64,000 nucleotides of DNA from a virus (taxonomy: Duplodnaviria; Caudoviricetes): positions 32,655-96,654 of the IMG/VR virus record IMGVR_UViG_3300027542_000004. One strand, 5' to 3'. Below, one piece after another: positions 2,021-63,877 of the stretch. The notes below the pieces were generated by a model that saw only the letters and a program-made list of their open reading frames with translations, ran no database searches and was not told the DNA's origin. The position numbers were made by a program, and so were the translations under genes. The number at the start of each line of letters is the position of its first letter. Positions within the stretch are counted from its first letter, which is position 1.

Positions 2021-2716
2021 GTTAAAAAGCCACGTAAGACAGATTATAACGCGAGAGTCACAAAGGCACTCAAGGGAAAGGGCGTACCTCACCTTGAAGA
2101 GCCGATGTACCGCGTATCCGCGTCGGCTTTTACAAAGGCTATAAGACGCGGCAAGGCATCGCAAGGCAGGAACGGCTGGATGGTTGACCTGCATAGCAAA
2201 AGCGAATACAAGCGGATGCGATGCTTTCTTACTCCGGACGGAAAGACAGGTGTAGCGATAAAACGCGATGGGGATGTAGTGTCTGTATTCTCCACCAGCG
2301 GAAAACGAGGCGCAATGGCAAAAATCATACCGTTTGCGGTCGCTAATGGTGGTCGCAAACTGGATTGTTATGCTTTCTCGGATGGCCGCAGTTCACTTCA
2401 CAACATGTACGGAAGATTCGGCGCAAAGGCTCACGGCAAAATGACCTTTGACCCGCAATATAATCCTGTTTTCCAACGCACGGCGCAGGCCAATCCCGGT
2501 ATGCGCAGACCCTCTCATGTCGTGGCGATGACGCTGCCGGGCAGTCTTGCCGGTGTCATGCGGGCTTACAACGCTGACAGGAAGATTGACCTTGGGCGCG
2601 TGAGGTCGTATAATGATTACGACAAGATGATGGATGACTTTCCGCGCATCTTGCACTACGCGGAAAGTCAAGCGGTGTCAGAGGCGCACTTGGCGGCGGT
2701 AAATAACCAACCCTAA
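2021..2716 (+). CDS. Hypothetical protein, GNAT-like fold resemblance; proposed GTT start (first ATG 2105)
   Basis: DGDVVSVF..AVANGGRKLDCY..L..MY..FG pattern; frame open back to TAG at 2015-2017. Confidence 0.55.
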   Translation, partial: VKKPRKTDYNARVTKALKGKGVPHLEEPMYRVSASAFTKAIRRGKASQGRNGWMVDLHSKSEYKRMRCFLTPDGKTGVAIKRDGDVVSVFSTSGKRGAMAKIIPFAVANGGRKLDCYAFSDGRSSLHNMYGRFGAKAHGKMTFDPQYNPVFQRTAQANPGMRRPSHVVAMTLPGSLAGVMRAYNADRKIDLGRVRSYNDYDKMMDDFPRILHYAESQAVSEAHLAAVNNQP

Positions 2717-13505: not shown

Positions 13506-14123
13506 TCAGGGCATACGGTTTCCGAGGATGAAAGAATGACCATCTCCAAGCTTCCGTCTGATGATGTAACCGCCCATTTCAAGTCTGTCCCACGCTTCTT
13601 CAACGTCAATCTTGTCGATTCCGAGTGCTTTTGAAATCATGTTGTTGGTGACAACGAAAGGTACTTCTCGCGACGACCTGATGCCGTTCCGCAGATATGA
13701 ATATATCGCTACATCATAGGCGCTTAGTATGACATCTGTTGCCGGGATAATCTTTCCGCTGGCAAGGTCTTCACGCATCTCGTCTGCGAGCCTACGCGAT
13801 TCCGCGAATATGTCGGCCATCGTTTCCGGACGTTGGATGCTTTCAAGTTCTTTCCATCTTCGGATAAGGATTGCCCGCTGTCGGTCATCATACTTTGATG
13901 TGACGAATAGCGTTTGTTCAAATGTCAGTTCATAACATGGTCTTTGCTTCCCTTGCGAATCTGTGTATGAGGTGAGGGCAAAATTTCCCTCACCTACTTC
14001 AATCCAGACTTTCTCCATCTTACGGATGACCTTTAACAAATCGGCATGGCGAATATCAAGAAACTGAGCTATCTCAAGACTGGTTCTTGTTGGTTGCCTG
14101 TAAATCGTTGGTACTACTTCCAT
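13506..14123 (-). CDS. Rha-family phage regulatory protein with C-terminal HTH
   Basis: TSLEIA....RH.DLL..IR; SYTDSQGKQRPCYEL; RWKELE. Confidence 0.85.
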   Translation of the reverse strand: MEVVPTIYRQPTRTSLEIAQFLDIRHADLLKVIRKMEKVWIEVGEGNFALTSYTDSQGKQRPCYELTFEQTLFVTSKYDDRQRAILIRRWKELESIQRPETMADIFAESRRLADEMREDLASGKIIPATDVILSAYDVAIYSYLRNGIRSSREVPFVVTNNMISKALGIDKIDVEEAWDRLEMGGYIIRRKLGDGHSFILGNRMP

Positions 14124-14134
14124 AATCCTTGATA

Positions 14135-14308
14135 TTAGTCAAATTCAAATTCATCATCATAAAGGTCAATGGTGGTCCCGCTGCTGAACTGGATGACGAA
14201 CCGGTATCCGTTTCTACCGATGATGGTGCCGCGATGGTATCCGCGCCACGGCTCTTTCAATTCTACTTGCTTTCCGTATTCAGGGAAATTTGTATCTTCT
14301 TCGTACAT
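14135..14308 (-). CDS. Small hypothetical protein (57 aa, below ORF-track cutoff)
   Basis: MYEEDTNFPEYGKQVELKEPWRGY...DDEFEFD read by hand in the minus-strand operon. Confidence 0.6.
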   Translation of the reverse strand: MYEEDTNFPEYGKQVELKEPWRGYHRGTIIGRNGYRFVIQFSSGTTIDLYDDEFEFD

Positions 14309-14365
14309 TGCTGATGGGTGTTATGGGCGACCCGGATTGCAGAGCCGCCCGGTTAGACATTGTAA

Positions 14366-15007
14366 TTATGCGGTCACTGATGATTCAATCAGTTCCGTGT
14401 CGATATAGGCGTTATCAACGTTGATTTCATTACCCTCATCGTCAAGAGTCCAGACACGCGATGTCAGGATTTCAAGATGTGGCTTGTTGATGCCGCCCAC
14501 CGATGCGACCATATCATTTCCGATTTCCACGCTTACACAGAAATAGCCGGTCACTACCGGGGTGATTGCAGCCACCACTGCCGCCAGTGCGAGGGATGCT
14601 GCCTTTGAATTGAAACTTGTTACTTGCATTTTCATTCGCTTTATTGGTTGATTACATAAAAGTCTTTTCAGATAAACCATCCTCCCCCAACTGAGCATAT
14701 CTTCCGTTTCCTGAATATCCTTTGCCTCCTGCCATGCTTCGCGTATGCGGTATGATGCCTCCTTTTCAATGCGGTATTTATCCGGCTTGCCATAAGGGAT
14801 TTCTTCATCATCTGCATTATAGTGATAGACGTTACATTCATTGATAGAAACGTCACCATCCTCATCATCAATCCATCCACTGACTTCACATGACAGGGCG
14901 TTTCCGTCTTCATCATCATATTCAACAGAAGTAAAGAATCTGCCCGGCTCACATTCATAGACGGCATTGATAATAGCATCTTCAAGGTCTTTCAGGTTGG
15001 GTATCAT
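14366..15007 (-). CDS. Acidic hypothetical protein, possibly two fused genes (second start MKMQ near 14635)
   Basis: Open frame; internal leader-like TGTAATCAACCAATAAAG precedes the second ATG. Confidence 0.5.
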   Translation of the reverse strand: MIPNLKDLEDAIINAVYECEPGRFFTSVEYDDEDGNALSCEVSGWIDDEDGDVSINECNVYHYNADDEEIPYGKPDKYRIEKEASYRIREAWQEAKDIQETEDMLSWGRMVYLKRLLCNQPIKRMKMQVTSFNSKAASLALAAVVAAITPVVTGYFCVSVEIGNDMVASVGGINKPHLEILTSRVWTLDDEGNEINVDNAYIDTELIESSVTA

Positions 15008-15008
15008 G

Positions 15009-15338
15009 TCAAGCCATTTTATAGAGGTTGCATTTCTTGAAAGAACGATACTCCTGCTTCTCGGTATCATAGTACACTTGCACTGTGTCTGCCGGTCTGC
15101 GACCGCTCCCCTGCGTTTCAGGGAGGCGGTGTGGGTCAAGTGTGCCGAAAGCCTGTCTGAGCGTTCCGTCAACTTTCATAAAGAAGAATTGTACGATGCC
15201 GGTGCGCATAGCTTTTGTAACTTTGGCGTTGAGCCATGCCACCTTGAGGGCTTCTGCCATTGTGAAGCCGTTGCGTTTTACGAACATCCATGCCATTCTC
15301 ATAATGTTGGCGAGGGTTGATTTTCTTTCGTTGCTCAT
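15009..15338 (-). CDS. DUF2693/WYL_2-like SH3-fold protein, paralog of 42578-42910
   Basis: F.F.KVDGTLR.A.GTL ... YYDTEK.EYRSFK. Confidence 0.8.
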   Translation of the reverse strand: MSNERKSTLANIMRMAWMFVKRNGFTMAEALKVAWLNAKVTKAMRTGIVQFFFMKVDGTLRQAFGTLDPHRLPETQGSGRRPADTVQVYYDTEKQEYRSFKKCNLYKMA

Positions 15339-15915: not shown

Positions 15916-16135
15916 ATCGTTGGTCTTTTGTTGTCGTTTAACTTTGATGATGCAAAGTTATAGAATAAAATCTATATATGCAAATAAAATATAGTCTAAA
16001 CACTATTATTTAACAATTATTAACAATAGGCTAAAATCTATAAATAATAAAAATAATAGCGTTTAGTCTAATTTAATTTTGTAGATTAAATTTTTTTGTT
16101 TAATTTTGCACCATTAAAAATATAGATTAAAGGCT

Positions 16136-16639
16136 ATGGATATAAAGCAAAGAATAAAAGAGGCAGGGATGACCGTCAGTGAAGTGGCGGCTCGGATGCC
16201 ACGACCGGATGGAGGTGTGGGAATTGCACAGGCTTCATTATCTGCTATAATTAATGGCAATCCGACTATAAATAAATTGAAAGACATTGCCGATATTCTT
16301 GGTATATTGCTTTCGGAACTTGTTAAGGATGAATCTTCGTTAACTCAAAGGATTCACTGCCCTTATTGTGGAAAATCAATTCGTATAACATTGACAGCAG
16401 AAAAAGAAGAGCATCGGCATACACCGATAAGGAAAACTGTTGACTTACGTCTGAATACTGATGATGGTACAAAATATAGATATAAGCATCCCCATTCAAG
16501 AGAAGAAAGAATGGCTATTCTGGAACTTCAAACCTTACCGGGTGAGGATGGCATGGTTAGTGTCCTTAATACAAATCCCATTGATTCGGATGGAAACGAA
16601 GTATTTGATATAGAATATGACCGTTTGATGCCAATATAA
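16136..16639 (+). CDS. Xre-family HTH regulator with CPYCG motif
   Basis: SLSAIINGNPTINKLKDIADILG. Confidence 0.85.
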   Translation: MDIKQRIKEAGMTVSEVAARMPRPDGGVGIAQASLSAIINGNPTINKLKDIADILGILLSELVKDESSLTQRIHCPYCGKSIRITLTAEKEEHRHTPIRKTVDLRLNTDDGTKYRYKHPHSREERMAILELQTLPGEDGMVSVLNTNPIDSDGNEVFDIEYDRLMPI

Positions 16640-16662
16640 TTTTATCACAAAAATATAATAAT

Positions 16663-17271
16663 ATGAGAATATTTTCATTATTTATCGCATTTATGTTGAC
16701 TTTCAACATATTCGCGGAAGAAGTCTTAATAGGGGGTTATCACGATAACAATGGCGATGGCGAACATAATGTTATTGCTCGGCTTAAAGAAAATGGAAGT
16801 AAGATTGATTGTATCTATATTTTTGTTGCTTCAACAATGGGCAACGGATACTATCGTATAGACAGCAATAAAATTCCGGAATTTGTGACTGCATTGAGTG
16901 AAGTAAAAACAAAATTTGAGGAATGGTCAACACAAGCAATAGACAATGGCATAGAAAAATTTACGAAACAAATCAGTGTTAACTTTCCAAAGGTGGTAGT
17001 TTATCTATCTGGAAAATCCAATTTCAATTTTTCGCAAAAGCTCAATGCTCTTTTTCAAGTTGACAATGGGATTCCTTGTGTTTGGATATACGCTTCAACA
17101 TCAACTAATTTTTCCAAATATAATAACAAGAAGGAAGTTTTCTCAATGCTTTTTGAGAATCCATCTGACATAGATGGACTGATTTCTATTCTACGAGATG
17201 AAGAAACAATTTTGCAGTTAGCCCATAAAAATCTTCAAATCGAAAGGAAATTCGATGACCTCTTTCAATAG
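16663..17271 (+). CDS. Exported hypothetical protein (moron-like)
   Basis: N-terminal signal peptide; AT-rich. Confidence 0.7.
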   Translation: MRIFSLFIAFMLTFNIFAEEVLIGGYHDNNGDGEHNVIARLKENGSKIDCIYIFVASTMGNGYYRIDSNKIPEFVTALSEVKTKFEEWSTQAIDNGIEKFTKQISVNFPKVVVYLSGKSNFNFSQKLNALFQVDNGIPCVWIYASTSTNFSKYNNKKEVFSMLFENPSDIDGLISILRDEETILQLAHKNLQIERKFDDLFQ

Positions 17272-17297
17272 TTTTCAAGAATCCCTATAAACAATTT

Positions 17298-17410: not shown

Positions 17411-18685
17411 TTATTGTTCAGAAGTTATTTCCTCATTATCAATGGTCAACGCGCAGAAGCCTTTACAAGCTCCACGGAAACCATTGTGGTATTCTTTGGC
17501 AGTCATACGCTTCTTGTTTGGCAACTGCAAAATATCAATCGAAAGCAACATATCCTGACAGGCGACCATCAGTTTGCCATTCTCCCAGAACCATTCTCCG
17601 GGTGCGCGGAAGCCGCGAGGAATGTCAGTAAGACTTGCCTTGTGAATCTTCACATCGGTTGCGGAATCTGCCTCAAGCAACCTTACCGAAGTCCATGCAG
17701 TCGGCACTGACCCTGCGATAGCCGGGGTCTTTGGATATTGTTCGCCACAAATAACTGATGAATGGGCGCGTATGAAGTTATGAACGACTTCTGCGGAATC
17801 AGTCCAACGGATAAAGGCATCATTGCGGTAGAGCTTGGGCGCATGGCTCGGTTGAAAGAAATCGCATATAAGTTCTGACTGCGGAACTCCATTGCACGAA
17901 TGACCAATACGCTGGATTGCATCATCCATCATATCCGCACCGAAATTGCGAAGTCTGATATGCACTTCTTCCGCGCTTTCTTCCGGGCCTATGTAGATTC
18001 CGAGGTTGTTGATGATTTTGCCTGTATCCACACCCTTATCGATTACGAAAGTGGTGATGCCGGTCATCGCGCTTCCGTCCTTGATTGCGGATGTGATAGT
18101 GGATGCGCCCCGGTACATTGGAAGAAGCGATGAATGGAGATTGATGACTCCCCATTTAGGTATGCGGAACAATTCAGATGGTAATATGCAGTATTCAACC
18201 ACAACTCCCAACGTGGGATTCAGATTGCGGATTTTTTGAAGAAAAGATTCTGATTTAAGTTGAAGATGCGATGGCTGATATACAAGAAGACCTGCCTCTT
18301 CCGCATAAACACTGACAGGTGATGGGCAACACTTGTTTCCGCGACCGCAAGGCTTATTCTCCATAGTCACGACAGCAGCCACATCATATCCCTTTTCAAC
18401 GAGCATCTTTAGAGTCGGCACAGCGAAATGTCCGTTTCCGAAAAATACAATCCTGATATTATTCCGATTCACCGGCTTTTCTTGGTCATATTCGGGATAA
18501 GCCGATATTGCGTCTTCCGGAACAATGCTATATCCATCGGCCTGATTGACCTTAACTAAGTAATTGCCATCTTCATCCGGGCAAAGGATTCTGCACGGCA
18601 CGAAAAACTGATTTTCAAATTGGTCGCCGGCGCAATGCCCAACCACATTTACCAAATGACCAACGCGGTATCTTGGAGCTTTCAT
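17411..18685 (-). CDS. fmt: Methionyl-tRNA formyltransferase-like protein with extra N-terminal domain
   Basis: IVFFG..F, VVT..NKP.GRG, SPV, INLHSSLLP.YRGA, TGIT, DTG, APKL, LQLPNKKRM; ATGA overlap with upstream HTH gene. Confidence 0.85.
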   Translation of the reverse strand: MKAPRYRVGHLVNVVGHCAGDQFENQFFVPCRILCPDEDGNYLVKVNQADGYSIVPEDAISAYPEYDQEKPVNRNNIRIVFFGNGHFAVPTLKMLVEKGYDVAAVVTMENKPCGRGNKCCPSPVSVYAEEAGLLVYQPSHLQLKSESFLQKIRNLNPTLGVVVEYCILPSELFRIPKWGVINLHSSLLPMYRGASTITSAIKDGSAMTGITTFVIDKGVDTGKIINNLGIYIGPEESAEEVHIRLRNFGADMMDDAIQRIGHSCNGVPQSELICDFFQPSHAPKLYRNDAFIRWTDSAEVVHNFIRAHSSVICGEQYPKTPAIAGSVPTAWTSVRLLEADSATDVKIHKASLTDIPRGFRAPGEWFWENGKLMVACQDMLLSIDILQLPNKKRMTAKEYHNGFRGACKGFCALTIDNEEITSEQ

Positions 18686-18951
18686 TTTGATGAACCGGTC
18701 TGGATGTCGATACGTGCGCCGCACTGCGGACAGATGATGATAGCGGAATTTGGCTCAAGGTAATCTGTGAATAAAGAAGATACCGGCACTTCCAGCACTT
18801 TTGCAATTCGCTCAAGCGTGGATATGTTAGGATTGCCCTTTTCATTAACGATGTTGCCGAGTGTCTGAGGGGTGATTCCCATCTTTTCCGCGAGGCTTTT
18901 AAGGGTCATGCCCTTAGCAGCGACAATGTTCTTGATTCTGAATTTTGCCAT
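18682..18951 (-). CDS. Xre-family HTH regulator with CPQCG motif
   Basis: LAEKMGITPQTL...GNPNISTLERIA. Confidence 0.9.
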   Translation of the reverse strand: MAKFRIKNIVAAKGMTLKSLAEKMGITPQTLGNIVNEKGNPNISTLERIAKVLEVPVSSLFTDYLEPNSAIIICPQCGARIDIQTGSSK

Positions 18952-20183: not shown

Positions 20184-20753
20184 ATGAAATTACTGTTTTT
20201 CGATTTAGAAACGACCGGTACGCTGGTCAACAAGCACGGAATACACCAAATGTCCGGCTTCATCGTAATCGACGGCGAAATCAAGGAGAAATTCAATCTT
20301 CATGTTCGCCCCAATCCAATGGCGCAGATTGACCCCGCCGCATTAGAGGTGGCAGGTGTGACGGAAGCGCAAATCAAGGCTTACCCTCCGATGGAGCAGG
20401 TGTACGCCGGCTTCGTTGATAAGCTATCCCAGTACGTTGACCGCTACAACAAGAAAGACAAATTCTTTCTCGTCGGCTATAACAACGCATCATTCGACAA
20501 TCAGTTTCTCCGTGCGTGGTTCATTCAGAACGGCGATAAATACTTCGGCTCATGGTTTTGGGCAAACAGCATAGACGTGATGATAATGGCGACTCCTTAC
20601 CTCGCTGAACGTCGCGCCGAGATGGAAAACTTCAAACAAGGCACGGTCGCCAAAACCCTCGGCATAGTCGTGGAAGATGACAAGCTACACGATGCACTCT
20701 ACGACATCGAAATCTGCAAAGCCATCTACGACAAGGTTTGTGGAAAGTATTAA
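20184..20753 (+). CDS. DEDDh 3'-5' exonuclease (DnaQ-like)
   Basis: FFDLETTG, GYN..FD..FL, HDALYDI. Confidence 0.92.
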   Translation: MKLLFFDLETTGTLVNKHGIHQMSGFIVIDGEIKEKFNLHVRPNPMAQIDPAALEVAGVTEAQIKAYPPMEQVYAGFVDKLSQYVDRYNKKDKFFLVGYNNASFDNQFLRAWFIQNGDKYFGSWFWANSIDVMIMATPYLAERRAEMENFKQGTVAKTLGIVVEDDKLHDALYDIEICKAIYDKVCGKY

Positions 20754-20772: not shown

Positions 20773-21555
20773 ATGAGAATCAAGAAGCAAAAATCGTTCA
20801 AGAACGGTACGGTGTACTGCCTTGAGCTGGAAGACGGAATGTTGGTTGAAACAACCGACACCTTTCTGCCTTACTACACCAAAGACGCAATCGGTCGCAA
20901 GCAGAATTTTCTTGACAACAATCAGCTCGGTAGTCGTGCGGAACGCTGGATGATAGGCGTATCCACAATGAGCGGATGCCCGGTTCATTGCAAATTCTGC
21001 GCTACCGGCAACATGAAGCGTTGGCGCAATCTTACGGCTGACGAAATTGTCGGTCAGGTGGAATTTGCCATCGCACAGGCAGGATTCAACCCGGCAGATG
21101 CCCGCGAGTTCAAAATCAACTACACGCGCATGGGTGAGCCTTTCTTGAACATCGACGCAGTTAAAGAAGCCATTGCCCGCATCACGGAAAAATATCCGAA
21201 CACACATCACTACGTTTCAACCATCGGCATCGCCGGCAGCGATTTCTCTTTTGTCAAGGGGAACGTGACGCTCCAGATAAGTCTGCATAGCTTTGACGAT
21301 GACAAGCGTAACTGGCTTATCCCTTACCCCAAGAAGATGACCATCGAAGAGCTGGGGCGCATACGCACGGAAAGCAACCTTAAAACGACCATCAACCTTA
21401 CACTCGTTGACGAGTCGGATTTCGATGCTGAAAAGCTGGCGAAGTATTTTGACAAGGATTATTTCTTTGTCAAGCTATCGCCCATCAATCCCAACAGCAT
21501 ATCGGAAAAGAACAATCTCGGTAACGGTGTTATCGAGGGCGTGAACATTGTATAA
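20773..21555 (+). CDS. RlmN/Cfr-like radical SAM protein lacking its C-terminal tail
   Basis: DG..VET, VS...GCPVHCKFC.TG, RNLTADEI..Q, MGEP, VST.G, ISLH. Confidence 0.85.
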   Translation: MRIKKQKSFKNGTVYCLELEDGMLVETTDTFLPYYTKDAIGRKQNFLDNNQLGSRAERWMIGVSTMSGCPVHCKFCATGNMKRWRNLTADEIVGQVEFAIAQAGFNPADAREFKINYTRMGEPFLNIDAVKEAIARITEKYPNTHHYVSTIGIAGSDFSFVKGNVTLQISLHSFDDDKRNWLIPYPKKMTIEELGRIRTESNLKTTINLTLVDESDFDAEKLAKYFDKDYFFVKLSPINPNSISEKNNLGNGVIEGVNIV

Positions 21556-22242: not shown

Positions 22243-23373
22243 ATGAAATTTACCATCAACAGTAAGGCTCTTTTGAGCCGTCTGGTTGCCGCCGGCAAAG
22301 CCGTAAGCAACCGACCCACGATTTCCATTCTGGGCAATTTCATGTTCGCCCTTGATGGGAAGACCGTCACAATCACCGCATCCGATACCGACAACGTGGT
22401 AATATCGCGCATTGAAGCCAACGATGCCGAGGGTGCTGGTAGTGTCTGCATCGATGCAAAGCGCGTCACGGAACTGCTCAAGGCAATGCCGGATTGCCCC
22501 GTGGTGTTTGACATCAACGATTCAACCCACGCAACCATCATCCGCTACACCAACGGAAAATACAATCTGTCTGGTCTGCCCACCATAGACTATCCCATTG
22601 GCGAGGCTGACGAAACGGAAGTCAAGGGCGTATTCACAATGCCAGCTTCGCAGATTCTCAAGGCACTGGATGTTGTCGGCTTCGCTACATCCAACGATGA
22701 ACTCCGCCCCATGCTGAACGGAGTGTATTGGGATATTACGGAAGATGCCGTTACATTCGTGGCAACCGACACCCATGTACTTGCAAAGTATCGTAGTACG
22801 CAGACCGCCCCCGGCAAGGTCATGAGCTTCAATCTGCCCAGTAAGTCAATCGCGCTTATCCGTGCGTTCATCGGAAAGCAGAGCGACATAAAGCTGACGG
22901 TCAGCGAAAGATTCGTCATCTTTGAGGGTAGCGACTTCAAGGTGCGCTCTACGCTTTATAATGGAATGTACCCGAACTACAACCGCGTTATTCCCGTCAA
23001 TCAGCCCATCTCTATCACGGTTGACCGCATGGACTTCGCTAACGCTATCACACGTGTTGCCATCTGCGCTGACGCACAGACACCGGTGCTTCGCCTCAAG
23101 ATTGCAGACGGAAAGATTGACATCGTGGCGCAGGACATCAGCTTCAACATCGGCGGCGAGGAGAAAGTGACGTGCGACTACAACGGAACACCGCTTGAAA
23201 TCGGATTCAGTTCAATCTACCTCAAGGGCGTACTTAACGCGATGAACACGCAGAACGTCGTGATAAAGCTGGCGGAGGCAAGCCGACCCGGATTGTTCCT
23301 ACCCGCTGAAAACGACGAATACGGCGAACTTACGCTTTTGTGTATGCCCATAAATATCCAGCAAACGACTTAA
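22243..23373 (+). CDS. dnaN: DNA polymerase III beta sliding clamp
   Basis: 376 aa; R..LNGV, VATD.H.LA, YPNY.RVIP, IGF...YL. Confidence 0.93.
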   Translation: MKFTINSKALLSRLVAAGKAVSNRPTISILGNFMFALDGKTVTITASDTDNVVISRIEANDAEGAGSVCIDAKRVTELLKAMPDCPVVFDINDSTHATIIRYTNGKYNLSGLPTIDYPIGEADETEVKGVFTMPASQILKALDVVGFATSNDELRPMLNGVYWDITEDAVTFVATDTHVLAKYRSTQTAPGKVMSFNLPSKSIALIRAFIGKQSDIKLTVSERFVIFEGSDFKVRSTLYNGMYPNYNRVIPVNQPISITVDRMDFANAITRVAICADAQTPVLRLKIADGKIDIVAQDISFNIGGEEKVTCDYNGTPLEIGFSSIYLKGVLNAMNTQNVVIKLAEASRPGLFLPAENDEYGELTLLCMPINIQQTT

Positions 23374-28791: not shown

Positions 28792-29880
28792 GTTAAACAG
28801 TCATTCTATTTCGATTACGCGCAGAAATACTTCCCCGGCCTCGTTCTGGCCGTGGTTGAACGTCTGAACGAAAAGCGCAACAACTCCGCGCAGACGTATC
28901 TCTACAAAGAGAAACTTCGCCCCCAGTTCTCGCTTGATGGTCGCTGGGCTTCCATTCTTGCCGAATACACCCGTGTAGCCGCCGACGTTGTGGCACTTGA
29001 CTCCGAGCTTCCGCTCAAGAGCCGTGACACGCTGGAGGTTGCTTCCGGCACTATCCCCAAGATAGGTATGAAGCTCTACCTGACCGAAAAGCAGATGAAG
29101 GACGTTGATTCGATGATTGCACAGGGTCTTCCCCTTGAAACCATCATCAACAACATCTTCGCCGACACCCCCCGTTGCATCGAGGGCATCTGGGAGCGCA
29201 TCGAAGACATCTTCCTTTCCGAGCTTTCGTCCGGCGTGGGCATTTCCGAACGTAACAACGGCACCGGCGTGCGCATCAACATGAACTTCTATGAGGCCAA
29301 TCAGTTCCTCGTATCGGCTCTGTGGAGCGCAACTACCGCCACACCGCTTGACGACATTCAGAAAGTCGTTGACAAGTCCATCGAAGACTCCAACACCATC
29401 ATCGACGCATACGCCGACGATACCGCCCTCCAGCTTCTTTACAAGAACGGTCAGGTGCGTGCGCAGTTTGCCTTTGACCAAGGCATCGCCATGACTGCAT
29501 CAACAGCCATCCCCGTGCTTGACCTTTCCAAGCTCCAGCAGCTTTTCCTCACCAAGTGGAACATCCGTCTGCACCGCGTTTCGCGCCGTGTGAAGACCGA
29601 GCTTAACGGAGTTAAGCAGAACCACAACCCGTGGAAGAAAGGCACTATTACCTTTGTCTGCGATGAAGAGCTTGGCTCGCTTGTATGGACTAACGTCGCC
29701 GAAGTCAACCGCCGTGTTGATGGTGTAGTCTATCAGGTAGCCGACGAATACATCCTTGCAAAGAAGTATTCCAAGACAGACCCCCTCCGCGAGTTCACCG
29801 CTTCCGAGGCTATGGTTGTCCCCGTGTTGAACAACGTTGACCGTATCTATACGCTCGACTCTCAGACTGTTCAGGAATGA
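28792..29880 (+). CDS. Major capsid protein (GpE-like); proposed GTT start (first canonical start GTG 28852)
   Basis: AADVVALDS.LPLKSR, IPKIG, DP.REFT...A.VVPV; frame opens right after TGA at 28789-28791. Confidence 0.85.
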   Translation, partial: VKQSFYFDYAQKYFPGLVLAVVERLNEKRNNSAQTYLYKEKLRPQFSLDGRWASILAEYTRVAADVVALDSELPLKSRDTLEVASGTIPKIGMKLYLTEKQMKDVDSMIAQGLPLETIINNIFADTPRCIEGIWERIEDIFLSELSSGVGISERNNGTGVRINMNFYEANQFLVSALWSATTATPLDDIQKVVDKSIEDSNTIIDAYADDTALQLLYKNGQVRAQFAFDQGIAMTASTAIPVLDLSKLQQLFLTKWNIRLHRVSRRVKTELNGVKQNHNPWKKGTITFVCDEELGSLVWTNVAEVNRRVDGVVYQVADEYILAKKYSKTDPLREFTASEAMVVPVLNNVDRIYTLDSQTVQE

Positions 29881-31580: not shown

Positions 31581-31605
31581 TTAACCCCTTAACACCCATA
31601 CACGA

Positions 31606-32151
31606 GTTGAAAATTCACCTAAGATTTGCGCAGTAGGCATCAAAAAGCTGTACTATGCTGACCCCAGCAAAGTGACCGCAGACCTTACCGGCGCACTCCT
31701 TGCCGCCCTGCTCAAAGACGCGGCCACAAAGGAGGTCAAAAACATCCATCAGGACACGTGGACTATCGAGGAAAGCGAGTCTTCGCAGGATGGATACCGC
31801 AACCAGCTTACCGGTTCTATCTACCGCATGGGAACAAAGACTATGGGCGACGTGACGTTCAACTGGACTATCGGCCAGTACGACTACGCCACTAAAGCCG
31901 AGTTCCTTGGTGGTGTCGTTACCGGAAAGTCGTGGAAACGTCCTCGCGGCATCGTCGAAATCCACAAGACCCTCATCGCGCTGACCGAAGACAATCAGTA
32001 TTGCGTACTTCCCTACGCCAACGTAGCCGGTCGCGAGGCCAACACTGACGGTGCTGTCGGCATCGGCATTGTCGGCACTGCAATGGAGCCGGAAAACGAT
32101 GCGGTTTCGTCCGAATACTGGTTCGACTCTTCCGAGGTCGTGACCGCGTAA
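31606..32151 (+). CDS. Major tail tube protein; proposed GTT start (first canonical start GTG 31672)
   Basis: NIHQDTW, Y.NQLTG..Y, GQYDY.TK; frame open back to TAA at 31582. Confidence 0.75.
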   Translation, partial: VENSPKICAVGIKKLYYADPSKVTADLTGALLAALLKDAATKEVKNIHQDTWTIEESESSQDGYRNQLTGSIYRMGTKTMGDVTFNWTIGQYDYATKAEFLGGVVTGKSWKRPRGIVEIHKTLIALTEDNQYCVLPYANVAGREANTDGAVGIGIVGTAMEPENDAVSSEYWFDSSEVVTA

Positions 32152-32218: not shown

Positions 32219-32238
32219 ATAAATCTAAAGTAAATCAA

Positions 32239-32640
32239 ATGGAAGCACAAAATACCGAAAACAACGATGGCGCACGGCTGGTTGCAAGTGCTATCGTCGG
32301 TCTTGACTACCGTACAATATTTGTCAACGATAAGTCTTACATCATTGAGCCACCCACAATCGCAAAGATAGCCGGGGCGACATTCTGGCTGCGCGACATG
32401 GGCGACGGAAAGACGCTGCGCGAAATCATCATGTCGCTGTCAAAAAGCGAAAATCTTACAAGGGCGTTATCGTGGTTCATTCAGGGCAATGAAGACCTCA
32501 GTGAAGAATTGACAAAAGGCACTATGGACGAAATCGTAAATGGGATTGAAGTCGCCTTTTCCATGATTGAAGCCCAAAATTTTATGAAGCTATCAGCTTT
32601 ACAGAGGAGCGCAAGTCTGCTGGTAGCAAAACCGAAATGA
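32239..32640 (+). CDS. Tail assembly chaperone
   Basis: Position; Y.I.PPTI.KIAGA. Confidence 0.65.
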   Translation: MEAQNTENNDGARLVASAIVGLDYRTIFVNDKSYIIEPPTIAKIAGATFWLRDMGDGKTLREIIMSLSKSENLTRALSWFIQGNEDLSEELTKGTMDEIVNGIEVAFSMIEAQNFMKLSALQRSASLLVAKPK

Positions 32641-62340: not shown

Positions 62341-62374
62341 TATTTTGCAAGTGGTTGATTTTCAGTAAGGGTTG

Positions 62375-62461
62375 CGGAAAGACAGGGATTCGAACCCTGG
62401 GTACACAGAAGTGTACAACGGTTTTCGAGACCGTCCCGTTCGACCGCTCCGGCATCTTTCC
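62375..62461 (-). tRNA. tRNA-Ser (anticodon CGA), prophage integration site
   Basis: GGAAAGA/TCTTTCC acceptor stem, ACGGT-CTCGAAA-ACCGT anticodon arm, long variable arm, GGTTCGAATCC. Confidence 0.95.
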
Positions 62462-62701
62462 TCGGTCGTTTTTGATAGCGGTGCAAAATTACTACTTTTT
62501 TTTGATATCGACGCTATTTTTTTAAATTTTTTTCAATCTTTTATTAGCGGATCGTCTTGTTTGTTCAAGTTTTATTCTGTCTGATAATGCTTTAGAAACG
62601 CCTGCGTTTTGACAAAAAAATTGCAATCCTTTCATGGCAGAAGTGTGCGTCTGATGGATGAGACGAAGAATATATTTCCATGAATAACATCCGTTTCTTT
62701 A

Positions 62702-63877
62702 TTATTCATTGTCAAGATGAATAAGTCTTTTGAAACATTTGATCAATTCTGCATCGCCTGTGTGTTTGCCTTTATCCTCACTGATTTTGCACGTCTGACA
62801 ATAGAATGGCCAAGACTCCGTGATTTTGACATCTGTGAGTTTTATGACGATGTTCATTGGCTTTATTCCATCGAAGTCATTGGTGAAGTGCGTGCCAATT
62901 CCGAAGGATGGAATACATTTCCCTTTGGCATACTCCTGTATCTCCAATGCCTTGTCCACGTTTAGGCCGTTGCTGAAGACCACCTGCTTTGTGGTCGGGT
63001 CGATTTTAAGGGATTCATACTTGCTGATTATCAAATCAAGCTGCTCGAAATTGTCGCCGCTGTCAACCCTAAGCCCTTTGAACATGTTGGCATAATCCTC
63101 GGAGAAATTCAAATTGAATATCTGCCAGCCATACGTGTCGTAAAGAAAAATACCCAAAGCTCCACGATAGGTCTGCGCCCATCTCTCCATTGCTATATGG
63201 TTTGCCATTTGCGGGCCATACATCCCGGCAATAGCACTGATGAATTCATGGGCCATAGTCCCGATGGGAGTGAGGTCGTATTTCATTGCGAAGTAGACGT
63301 TGCTTGTGCCCATGAAACATCCCGGCATACTTCTTGAACGTTGGCATTCCGCCATGGCACCAATCGTCAGATCCTGGGCTTTGAGTGAAGCCCTCCGTCG
63401 TGTCCCCATGTCGCTGAATGTGCAGCCGGCTTCAAGCAGTCTCTTGGCCTTTTCATGGGATTTGTCGTAATATCCGGCAAAATCAAATTCCGCAGCCTGC
63501 CCCGTCATTTCGTAGTATAGCTCGGAGATTATGGCCAGAACCTTTACTTCAAGCAGAATTGTATTGCTCCAGCATCCTTCAAATTCCACAAGCAGATGTC
63601 CTTCCTCATTCTGTGAAGCCTTTACCCAATGACGACTGTATCGGAATCCACGCAAGAAGTTGTAGAACCATGCCGGGATATACCGGCATCTGTAGCGCAT
63701 AAATGCAATTTCTTCCTCTGTGATGGTCAAGGTTTCCAAGAGTGCGACCTGCCGCATCAACTCTTCTGCAAAGCCGGAAGGGTATACCGTATTGTTGCGG
63801 TCGTTGAATCTGTATTTCACCTGAGCACGTGGAAAGTTTTCAATCACGGCGCAGCACATTGTGAATTTATATAACAA
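62702..63877 (-). CDS. pncB: Nicotinate phosphoribosyltransferase (host), N-terminus apparently disrupted
   Basis: LYKFTM, D.GTRRR, GTSN, GTMAHE, R.DSGD, SFGIGT. Confidence 0.88.
   Translation of the reverse strand: MLYKFTMCCAVIENFPRAQVKYRFNDRNNTVYPSGFAEELMRQVALLETLTITEEEIAFMRYRCRYIPAWFYNFLRGFRYSRHWVKASQNEEGHLLVEFEGCWSNTILLEVKVLAIISELYYEMTGQAAEFDFAGYYDKSHEKAKRLLEAGCTFSDMGTRRRASLKAQDLTIGAMAECQRSRSMPGCFMGTSNVYFAMKYDLTPIGTMAHEFISAIAGMYGPQMANHIAMERWAQTYRGALGIFLYDTYGWQIFNLNFSEDYANMFKGLRVDSGDNFEQLDLIISKYESLKIDPTTKQVVFSNGLNVDKALEIQEYAKGKCIPSFGIGTHFTNDFDGIKPMNIVIKLTDVKITESWPFYCQTCKISEDKGKHTGDAELIKCFKRLIHLDNE

Follow-up and report, generated by a model that had tools for sequence, protein, structure and literature searches.

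The window analysed here is a stretch of 64,000 nucleotides from a Caudoviricetes virus, comprising bases 32655-96654 of the 96.6-kb IMG/VR virus record IMGVR_UViG_3300027542_000004, for which CheckV estimates a completeness of 86%. At positions 17411-18951 it carries two minus-strand genes in the same orientation, the first for a small Xre-family helix-turn-helix (HTH) protein and the second for a homologue of methionyl-tRNA formyltransferase (Fmt). In this report we describe this phage-encoded Fmt together with two features of the same element to which it appears to be connected, namely an initiator-like tRNA bearing a valine anticodon and a set of phage genes that open with GTT. Positions are those of the window unless the record is named, and the features of the Fmt locus are the following:

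17411..18685, minus strand: long-form Fmt homologue of 424 amino acids (aa), protein P0001, stop codon included; identified by its domains, the fmt hidden Markov model (HMM) and an AlphaFold2 (AF2) model
18461..18685, minus strand: predicted N-terminal Tudor/SH3-like beta-barrel (residues 1-75), absent from cellular Fmt and conserved in the long clade
17918..18454, minus strand: catalytic formyltransferase domain (residues 78-256), Pfam PF00551 Formyl_trans_N, E 3.2e-30; in order, the GNGHF loop, the GRG loop with R115, N182/H184, SLLPMYRGASTI and D220
17474..17833, minus strand: Fmt C-terminal domain of the tRNA-binding type (residues 285-404), Pfam PF02911 Formyl_trans_C, E 6.2e-14
18682..18951, minus strand: Xre-family HTH gene, 89 aa, HTH_3, E 2.3e-14

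The Fmt reading frame is open across 17411-18724 (minus strand), and its start is most likely the ATG at 18685, to which the initial methionine of all 32 relatives in our alignment (A1) corresponds. The TGA of the Xre gene and the ATG of the Fmt gene share an ATGA overlap that is kept in 11/11 related loci of the close lineage. That the host element is a prophage of mouse-gut bacteria also holds: Muribaculaceae genomes harbour near-identical elements, and at the end of the window a tRNA-Ser(CGA) gene (62374-62461, minus strand) is followed by a host nicotinate phosphoribosyltransferase (NAPRTase) gene (62702-63877, minus strand), so that the prophage probably meets the host chromosome at 62374-63877, with the tRNA gene as its attachment site. 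Two lysogens retain their own chromosomal fmt (270.5 and 274.1 bits) beside the prophage copy.

By its sequence and predicted fold P0001 is an Fmt-family enzyme rather than a sugar-nucleotide formyltransferase, and nothing points to a dead enzyme. We base this assignment on the alignment to E. coli Fmt (PDB 1FMT/2FMT; TIGR00460) of the SLLPxxRG motif, of N182/H184 and D220 with the N-x-H and D of that enzyme, and of the GRG arginine, since these features are conserved in the phage and the cellular proteins alike. The catalytic residues N182, H184 and D220 do not vary among 32 long-form relatives and, together with S186-P189, R192 and G193, are at least 93% conserved both in 61 long and in 180 canonical sequences. 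In the GRG loop, the query segment kpcGRGnk aligns to rpaGRGkk of E. coli (the PAGRGKK loop), R115 being its arginine and invariant in A1; the corresponding inserted-loop arginine of E. coli (Arg42) contacts the acceptor end. Against the fmt equivalog model TIGR00460, P0001 scores 189.1 bits, below the curated cut-off of 201.5, as do the long forms L009 (178.1) and P0044 (187.4), and P0020 (205.0) and the prophage copy of G002 (205.8) pass it. The scores of P0001 against models of other formyltransferases are far lower (ArnA, 95.2 bits with a cut-off of 777; PurN, 53; dTDP-sugar formyltransferase, 18.1). The AF2 model, built with the 32 relatives, reaches a mean predicted local distance difference test score (pLDDT) of 90.0 and a predicted template modelling score (pTM) of 0.87; in a Foldseek search of the PDB with this two-domain fold the best 11 rows are bacterial Met-tRNA formyltransferases, with target-normalised TM-scores (TMt) of 0.85-0.90, and ArnA and the sugar formyltransferases rank behind all Fmt chains. 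The C-terminal domain has a 16-residue insert at about residues 310-326 that is confined to the closest relatives in A1.

What sets the phage enzyme apart from bacterial Fmt is its membership in a separate clade. A homologue search returned 146 proteins, of which 48 clusters (391-434 aa, 38-87% identical) span the whole query including its first 75 residues; beyond these lie ordinary Fmts of about 300-326 aa with at most 40% identity. In an IQ-TREE phylogeny of 107 rows, the 42 long forms (40 chosen from 61, the window protein and the L009 copy) fall on one side of a branch, and the 65 canonical Fmts (45 random, 18 hand-picked named Bacteroidota Fmts and the host Fmts of the two lysogens) on the other, with an SH-like approximate likelihood ratio (SH-aLRT) support of 99 that may be inflated, as this quick tree kept the N-terminal columns. 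Four alignment columns separate the 61 long from the 180 canonical sequences: column 84 (N in 59/61, T in 159/180), column 85 (G in 60/61, P in 157/180), column 195 (S in 57/61, A in 154/180) and column 256, where the canonical T is replaced by A256. The first two changes, at positions equal to 11-12 of E. coli Fmt by alignment, turn GTPxF into GNGxF; the third, together with the mostly threonine residue that replaces the proline of AAPI, turns this motif into ASTI. A preliminary description of the locus, made from the letters of the window alone, had proposed a prophage-borne Fmt homologue of full architecture with its C-terminal domain, intact catalytic N-x-H and D, drifted GNGHF and YRGASTI motifs, about 70 extra N-terminal residues and translational coupling to the Xre gene. 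Our analysis bears out each of these points; the motif changes mark the whole clade, and the extension, closer to 75 residues, is conserved in all 48 clusters.

The extension is predicted to form a five-stranded barrel with a pLDDT of 86-95 in the full-length model and 73.7 when folded alone (model strands at residues 11-15, 28-37, 41-46 and 51-56). Its VIA-align matches are to PWWP, Tudor, chromo and KOW domains (Z 7-8.7) and its best Foldseek matches are Tudor domains (E 1e-3, TMt 0.83-0.86); these structure scores are only suggestive of a Tudor/SH3-like domain. No Pfam family covers it, a search of the ESM Atlas gave no usable match, and the sole candidate for a stand-alone relative is a 106-aa protein on a 1.2-kb contig that is probably a cut-off Fmt. 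Among genome loci, tblastn matches begin at residue 37 in three (L017, L021 and L033); seeming extended cellular Fmts at L021 and L033 were rejected as ordinary Fmts of 326-329 aa whose frames happen to run on into the gene upstream. Only canonical-length Fmts occur among the 80 matches listed for metagenome contigs, which says nothing on long forms. An Fmt with an added N-terminal module is also known from Exiguobacterium, where a def-fmt fusion complements an E. coli def-fmt deletion; its module is a peptide deformylase, whereas that of the phage enzyme is a Tudor-like barrel (PMC12690207).

The candidate partner of this enzyme is a 74-nt tRNA, called tRNA-Val(AAC) by ARAGORN, at G000:C1:31756-31829 of the record. 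Its position within the same prophage, about 0.9 kb upstream of the window, put it out of sight of the preliminary description. Its sequence is 73% identical to that of a tRNA-Met(CAT) on the chromosome of a lysogen, a tRNA with the same initiator type of acceptor stem. Like canonical initiator tRNAfMet, tRNA(AAC) has a CGCGGG acceptor stem with an unpaired 1:72 position (C1xU72, followed by G2-C71/C3-G70/G4-C69), a D arm with A11:U24 and a T arm close to that of the host tRNA; unlike it, the phage tRNA has the anticodon AAC (UAC or GAC in other phages) in place of CAU, a U at position 37 and an anticodon arm (CCAGU-UUAACUU-GCUGG) that departs from the three G:C pairs of initiators. Across 16 phage copies and the host tRNA 200/200 stem cells pair, with 10 pairs changed on both sides, a degree of covariation reached in 0/500 shuffles. 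The 1:72 position is CxU, CxC, UxU or UxC in 15 of the phage copies and U-A in one, so that position 72 is never G and is U or C except in the copy with A, and A11:U24 is invariant. As judged from this pairing, tRNA(AAC) is a maintained, functional tRNA. According to a review (PMC4611024), a 1:72 mismatch and A11:U24 are the determinants for Fmt. Three related fragments also carry, about 3.5-4.7 kb from tRNA(AAC), a 71-nt tRNA-like gene to which ARAGORN assigns a two-base 'anticodon' (ca) (L142:4627-4697, L145:3942-4012 and L146:8358-8428); it is not called in the record of the window.

The codons that such a tRNA would read stand at the head of four plus-strand genes which, by their reading frames, have no usable canonical start:

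record position 32256, plus strand: 66-codon gene opening with GTT, adjoining the tRNA; GA-GTT in 7/7 orthologues
2021..2716, plus strand: basic protein gene of 231 codons opening with GTT and preceding the endolysin gene; no ATG, GTG or TTG before codon 29
28792..29880, plus strand: major capsid gene of 362 codons, GTT straight after an in-frame TGA; phrog_29 major head protein, Phage_cap_E
31606..32151, plus strand: putative tail-tube-position gene of 181 codons opening with GTT; phrog_14600, GA-GTT in 8/8 relatives

Each GTT follows directly on GA and lies 0-7 codons after an in-frame stop, with no ATG, GTG or TTG until 14-28 codons downstream. The GTT is conserved in the four genes across 5 to 8 related phages: the capsid gene has GA-GTT at the same position in 8/8 related phages and prophages, and gene 2021-2716 keeps it in 5/5 orthologues, one of them only 41% identical. 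The 20 codons ahead of the first canonical start of the capsid gene are conserved as protein, with synonymous changes, and across the orthologues of all four genes most changes in the stretch from the GTT to the first canonical start are synonymous or conservative. In the product of 31606-32151, where the first ATG, GTG or TTG is codon 23, phrog_14600 already aligns from residue 6 (profile position 3 of 178). A phage of a different lineage (G012) has GTT openers 4 nt after GGAGG-type motifs, and one of these matches its PHROG from residue 6. A motif TTAACCC(C/T)TTAACAC, conserved in relatives, lies 10-12 nt upstream of two GA-GTT starts (window 31581-31595; record about 32229-32243) and could be a promoter, leader or ribosome-loading element.

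The link between the tRNA and the starts is best seen in the most distant long Fmt, 32% identical (L009/L010), which is encoded in G010 and G023. A tRNA some 9 kb away, found with covariance model R1 (84.9 bits), has the same initiator-type body, the loop UU-UAC-UU and the anticodon UAC, and the capsid orthologue of G010, 67% identical and aligned from residue 1, opens with TGA-GTA. The start codon thus follows the anticodon, since GTT goes with the AAC lineage and GTA with the UAC lineage, and this covariation provides the strongest evidence that such tRNAs would start translation. We are highly confident that initiation at GUU and GUA by the phage initiator-like tRNAs is real. Both anticodons being valine's, the comparison suggests that valine is the common denominator of the enzyme.

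Long Fmts were found in the record of the window, in nine IMG/VR contigs and, with the whole GTDB set scanned, in four species genomes (Lepagella muris, two Muribaculaceae or 'Porphyromonadaceae' assemblies and one Bacteroides metagenome-assembled genome). G006 and G009 have identical coordinates and probably represent a single sequence, so that the independent records number 13; 11 of these carry an initiator-like tRNA with a valine anticodon; from the gene order, the two that miss it (G005 and G024) appear to end before the expected tRNA position. Within the host family the tRNA pattern occurs in 1/301 genomes, and that one is the lysogen itself. The tRNA is found far beyond the enzyme. The same pattern with anticodon CAC, GAC or UAC (loop UU-BAC-UU) is present in at least 109 viral contigs, 77 of 80 listed IMG/VR loci (L248-L327) carrying GAC, mostly with a C1xA72 acceptor end. 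The tRNA system is thus far more widespread than Fmt, which we regard as a lineage-specific accessory of it and no requirement.

From these observations we consider it probable that P0001 is an active Fmt-family formyltransferase and the partner of the phage initiator-type tRNA, with the valine-charged phage tRNA as its main substrate. The phage tRNA keeps the features that are read by Fmt on initiator tRNA (no Watson-Crick pair at 1:72, G2-C71/C3-G70/G4-C69 and A11:U24) and, because of its anticodon AAC, would be charged with valine by the host valyl-tRNA synthetase (ValRS). The phage Fmt would then formylate Val-tRNA(AAC), and the formylated tRNA would start translation at the GUU of at least four phage genes, including those for the major capsid protein and the probable tail tube. 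The host Fmt presumably works slowly on valine, so that the phage would bring its own enzyme, with a putatively remodelled active-site rim (GNGxF, ASTI) and the extra Tudor-like domain. The preliminary description had suggested an altered tRNA or amino-acid specificity linked to the GTT-start genes. The link is supported at the genomic level by the conservation of the GTT starts, by the covariation of start codon and anticodon and by the co-occurrence of long Fmt and tRNA, whereas we infer the shift towards Val-tRNA itself, as we do the charging with valine, the formylation by phage rather than host Fmt and the role of the N-terminal domain.

A precedent comes from an engineered E. coli system with overexpressed ValRS and FMT (bioRxiv 10.64898/2025.12.21.695813; see also 10.1101/2021.05.25.445580), in which an i-tRNA-AAC initiates only at GUU, with Val or fVal. 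Two bottlenecks are described there, charging by ValRS, which the rigid G:C-rich anticodon stem hampers, and formylation by FMT, whose Vmax on Val-charged initiator tRNA is cited as roughly 60-fold lower and whose overexpression gives a gain of about 3-fold. By analogy, the loosened anticodon stem and the own Fmt of the phage would match these two bottlenecks. The two systems share the anticodon, the start codon and the class of the helper enzyme; they differ in that the phage system occurs in nature, its tRNA has only pyrimidines around the anticodon in the loop (UU-AAC-UU) and dispenses with the three G:C pairs of the stem, its Fmt is a diverged enzyme rather than an overexpressed host one, and its targets are capsid and tail genes.

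Phage suppressor tRNAs recode stop codons in gut phages. The system proposed here resembles such recoding in that a phage tRNA would change how a codon found mostly in late genes is read, and differs from it in that a start codon would be reassigned, with a tRNA-modifying enzyme alongside. A more far-reaching version, which we put forward tentatively as a possibility, is a private orthogonal initiation system composed of a valine initiator tRNA, a dedicated formyltransferase and reassigned starts, in which the Tudor-like domain might tether the enzyme to the tRNA, ValRS, initiation factor 2 (IF2) or the ribosome, a five-base GA-GUU might be recognized and the synthesis of capsid and tail would be gated, the late proteins being unmakeable without the phage's own tRNA and enzyme. 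Pairing beyond three bases is suggested by the conserved GA before every GTT or GTA start and by the invariant U37/U38 of the loop, which, we speculate, might pair with the -1 A and -2 G.

Several observations weigh against the pairing of enzyme and tRNA that we favour. Such tRNAs occur without Fmt in 62 other phage records (12 of AAC type and 50 of GAC type): phage Fmt was absent from 12/12 further AAC-type records, most of them fragments and one 94% complete, and Formyl_trans_N was found in 0/50 GAC-type records searched, 8 of which are at least 90% complete. The tRNA itself lacks the three consecutive G:C pairs of canonical initiators, which are described as a P-site feature in PMC4611024, and G30:C40 alone is invariant. 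A crude count of long frames opening with GTN preceded by GA gives GTT 12, GTC 5 and GTA 1 in the AAC set (8 sequences) and GTA 3, GTT 0 and GTC 0 in the UAC set (5 sequences), but GTC 5, GTA 4 and GTT 5 in the GAC set (77 loci), i.e., no excess of GTC; since the sets hold related phages and partial loci, this count is neither proof nor refutation. A GAC-type TGA-GTC opener of 377 codons was noted in L254 and L259. The Fmt gene follows an Xre gene, has the opposite orientation to the late genes and has changed far more quickly than the genes around it (in L013, Fmt is 57% and Xre 75% identical, versus 99-100% for the flanking genes), a pattern that would also fit conflict genes. Contigs from RNA libraries that are near-identical (at least 99%) cover Fmt/Xre and 16126-17285 and none covers structural genes, a weak hint that Fmt is expressed in lysogens from contigs that have no power to show strand, level or absence. 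The Xre coupling, the opposite strand, the fast divergence and the RNA-contig pattern may alternatively reflect tight autoregulation of a potentially harmful enzyme.

The absence of Fmt from most phages with such tRNAs, and the retention of all Fmt hallmarks with HMM scores near the cut-off, which two long forms pass, would be expected if the gene encoded an ordinary auxiliary Fmt of unchanged specificity that supplements the formylation of host Met-tRNAfMet in the course of infection or lysogeny. We consider this unlikely, as the clade is old and apart from cellular Fmts, with clade-wide changes near the active site and an added domain, and occurs in two distant lineages that both have initiator-like tRNAs with valine anticodons; moreover, a second fmt is rare in bacteria: according to PMC12690207, 98.6% of 5,042 reference genomes have one fmt and only ten have two. 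The antitoxin-toxin-like layout, in which the stop of a small HTH gene overlaps the start of the next gene, the fast divergence relative to the flanks and the hint of lysogen expression recall instead a toxin or exclusion factor controlled by Xre. Such a formyltransferase, being promiscuous, would block elongator aminoacyl-tRNAs in the manner of acetyltransferase toxins and act either in the abortion of superinfection or in addiction. This seems quite improbable to us: no PADLOC family matches Fmt, the gene in the distant lineage (L009) has no upstream Xre and lies among head genes, and the co-occurrence with the tRNA would be left unexplained. More doubtful still, to the point of being very improbable, is a formyltransferase for a substrate other than tRNA (a sugar nucleotide or another amine) or a catalytically dead tRNA-binding protein. 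A score below the curated fmt cut-off and an N-terminal domain without known function are in line with it, but the ArnA, PurN and sugar formyltransferase models score far lower, neither the tRNA-contacting loop arginine nor the C-terminal domain has been lost, the catalytic triad shows no variation, and the formylation of another substrate, which the preliminary description had raised, gained no support. The protein groups with Fmt rather than with sugar-nucleotide formyltransferases, has intact catalytic residues and is associated with GTT starts, findings that leave the main proposal of the preliminary description unrefuted.

The neighbourhood of the operon holds further cargo. A convergent two-gene unit at 16126-17285 (plus strand) encodes a 167-aa HTH_3 protein and a 202-aa protein with a signal-peptide-like N-terminus, and is matched exactly by a 1160-nt metatranscriptome-library contig with a word depth of 22.9, the highest in the 20 kb examined. 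Both HTH proteins, that of 18682-18951 (minus strand) and that of 16136-16639 (plus strand), have a CP-x-CG motif after the helix-turn-helix, possibly one half of a zinc ribbon. At 20773-21555 (plus strand), 2 kb away from the Fmt operon, lies another cargo gene related to translation, with 91-99% conservation in related phages. Its product, a 260-aa radical-SAM protein, resembles a short version of the rRNA/tRNA adenine methyltransferases of the RlmN/Cfr type (81.7 bits against TIGR00048, whose cut-off is 290). Cargo genes at 13506-15338 (minus strand), 20184-20753 (plus strand) and 22243-23373 (plus strand) encode a Rha-family regulator, a WYL_2 Sm-like protein, an RNase T-type exonuclease and a DNA polymerase III beta clamp.

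To our knowledge, the natural initiator tRNAs described so far all read AUG-type codons and carry methionine. The review PMC4611024 is consistent with this, and the literature searched holds no report of a natural valine-initiator system, only engineered exceptions and, in a further search, papers on accessory deformylases, PMC12690207 among them. What we describe appears to be such a system in gut phages, with Fmt as its dedicated helper in one lineage, and since more than 125 IMG/VR contigs carry initiator-like tRNAs with valine anticodons the phenomenon extends beyond one phage. If true, a natural valine initiator tRNA with reassigned capsid and tail starts would be a new kind of deviation from the genetic code and the phage Fmt the first dedicated protein factor of such a deviation. 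In such gut phages, gene callers would then misplace the starts of major structural genes; an orthogonal initiation pair already shaped by evolution would become available to synthetic biology; and a comparison of two natural enzymes would permit a direct test of how Fmt senses the amino acid, a long-standing question.

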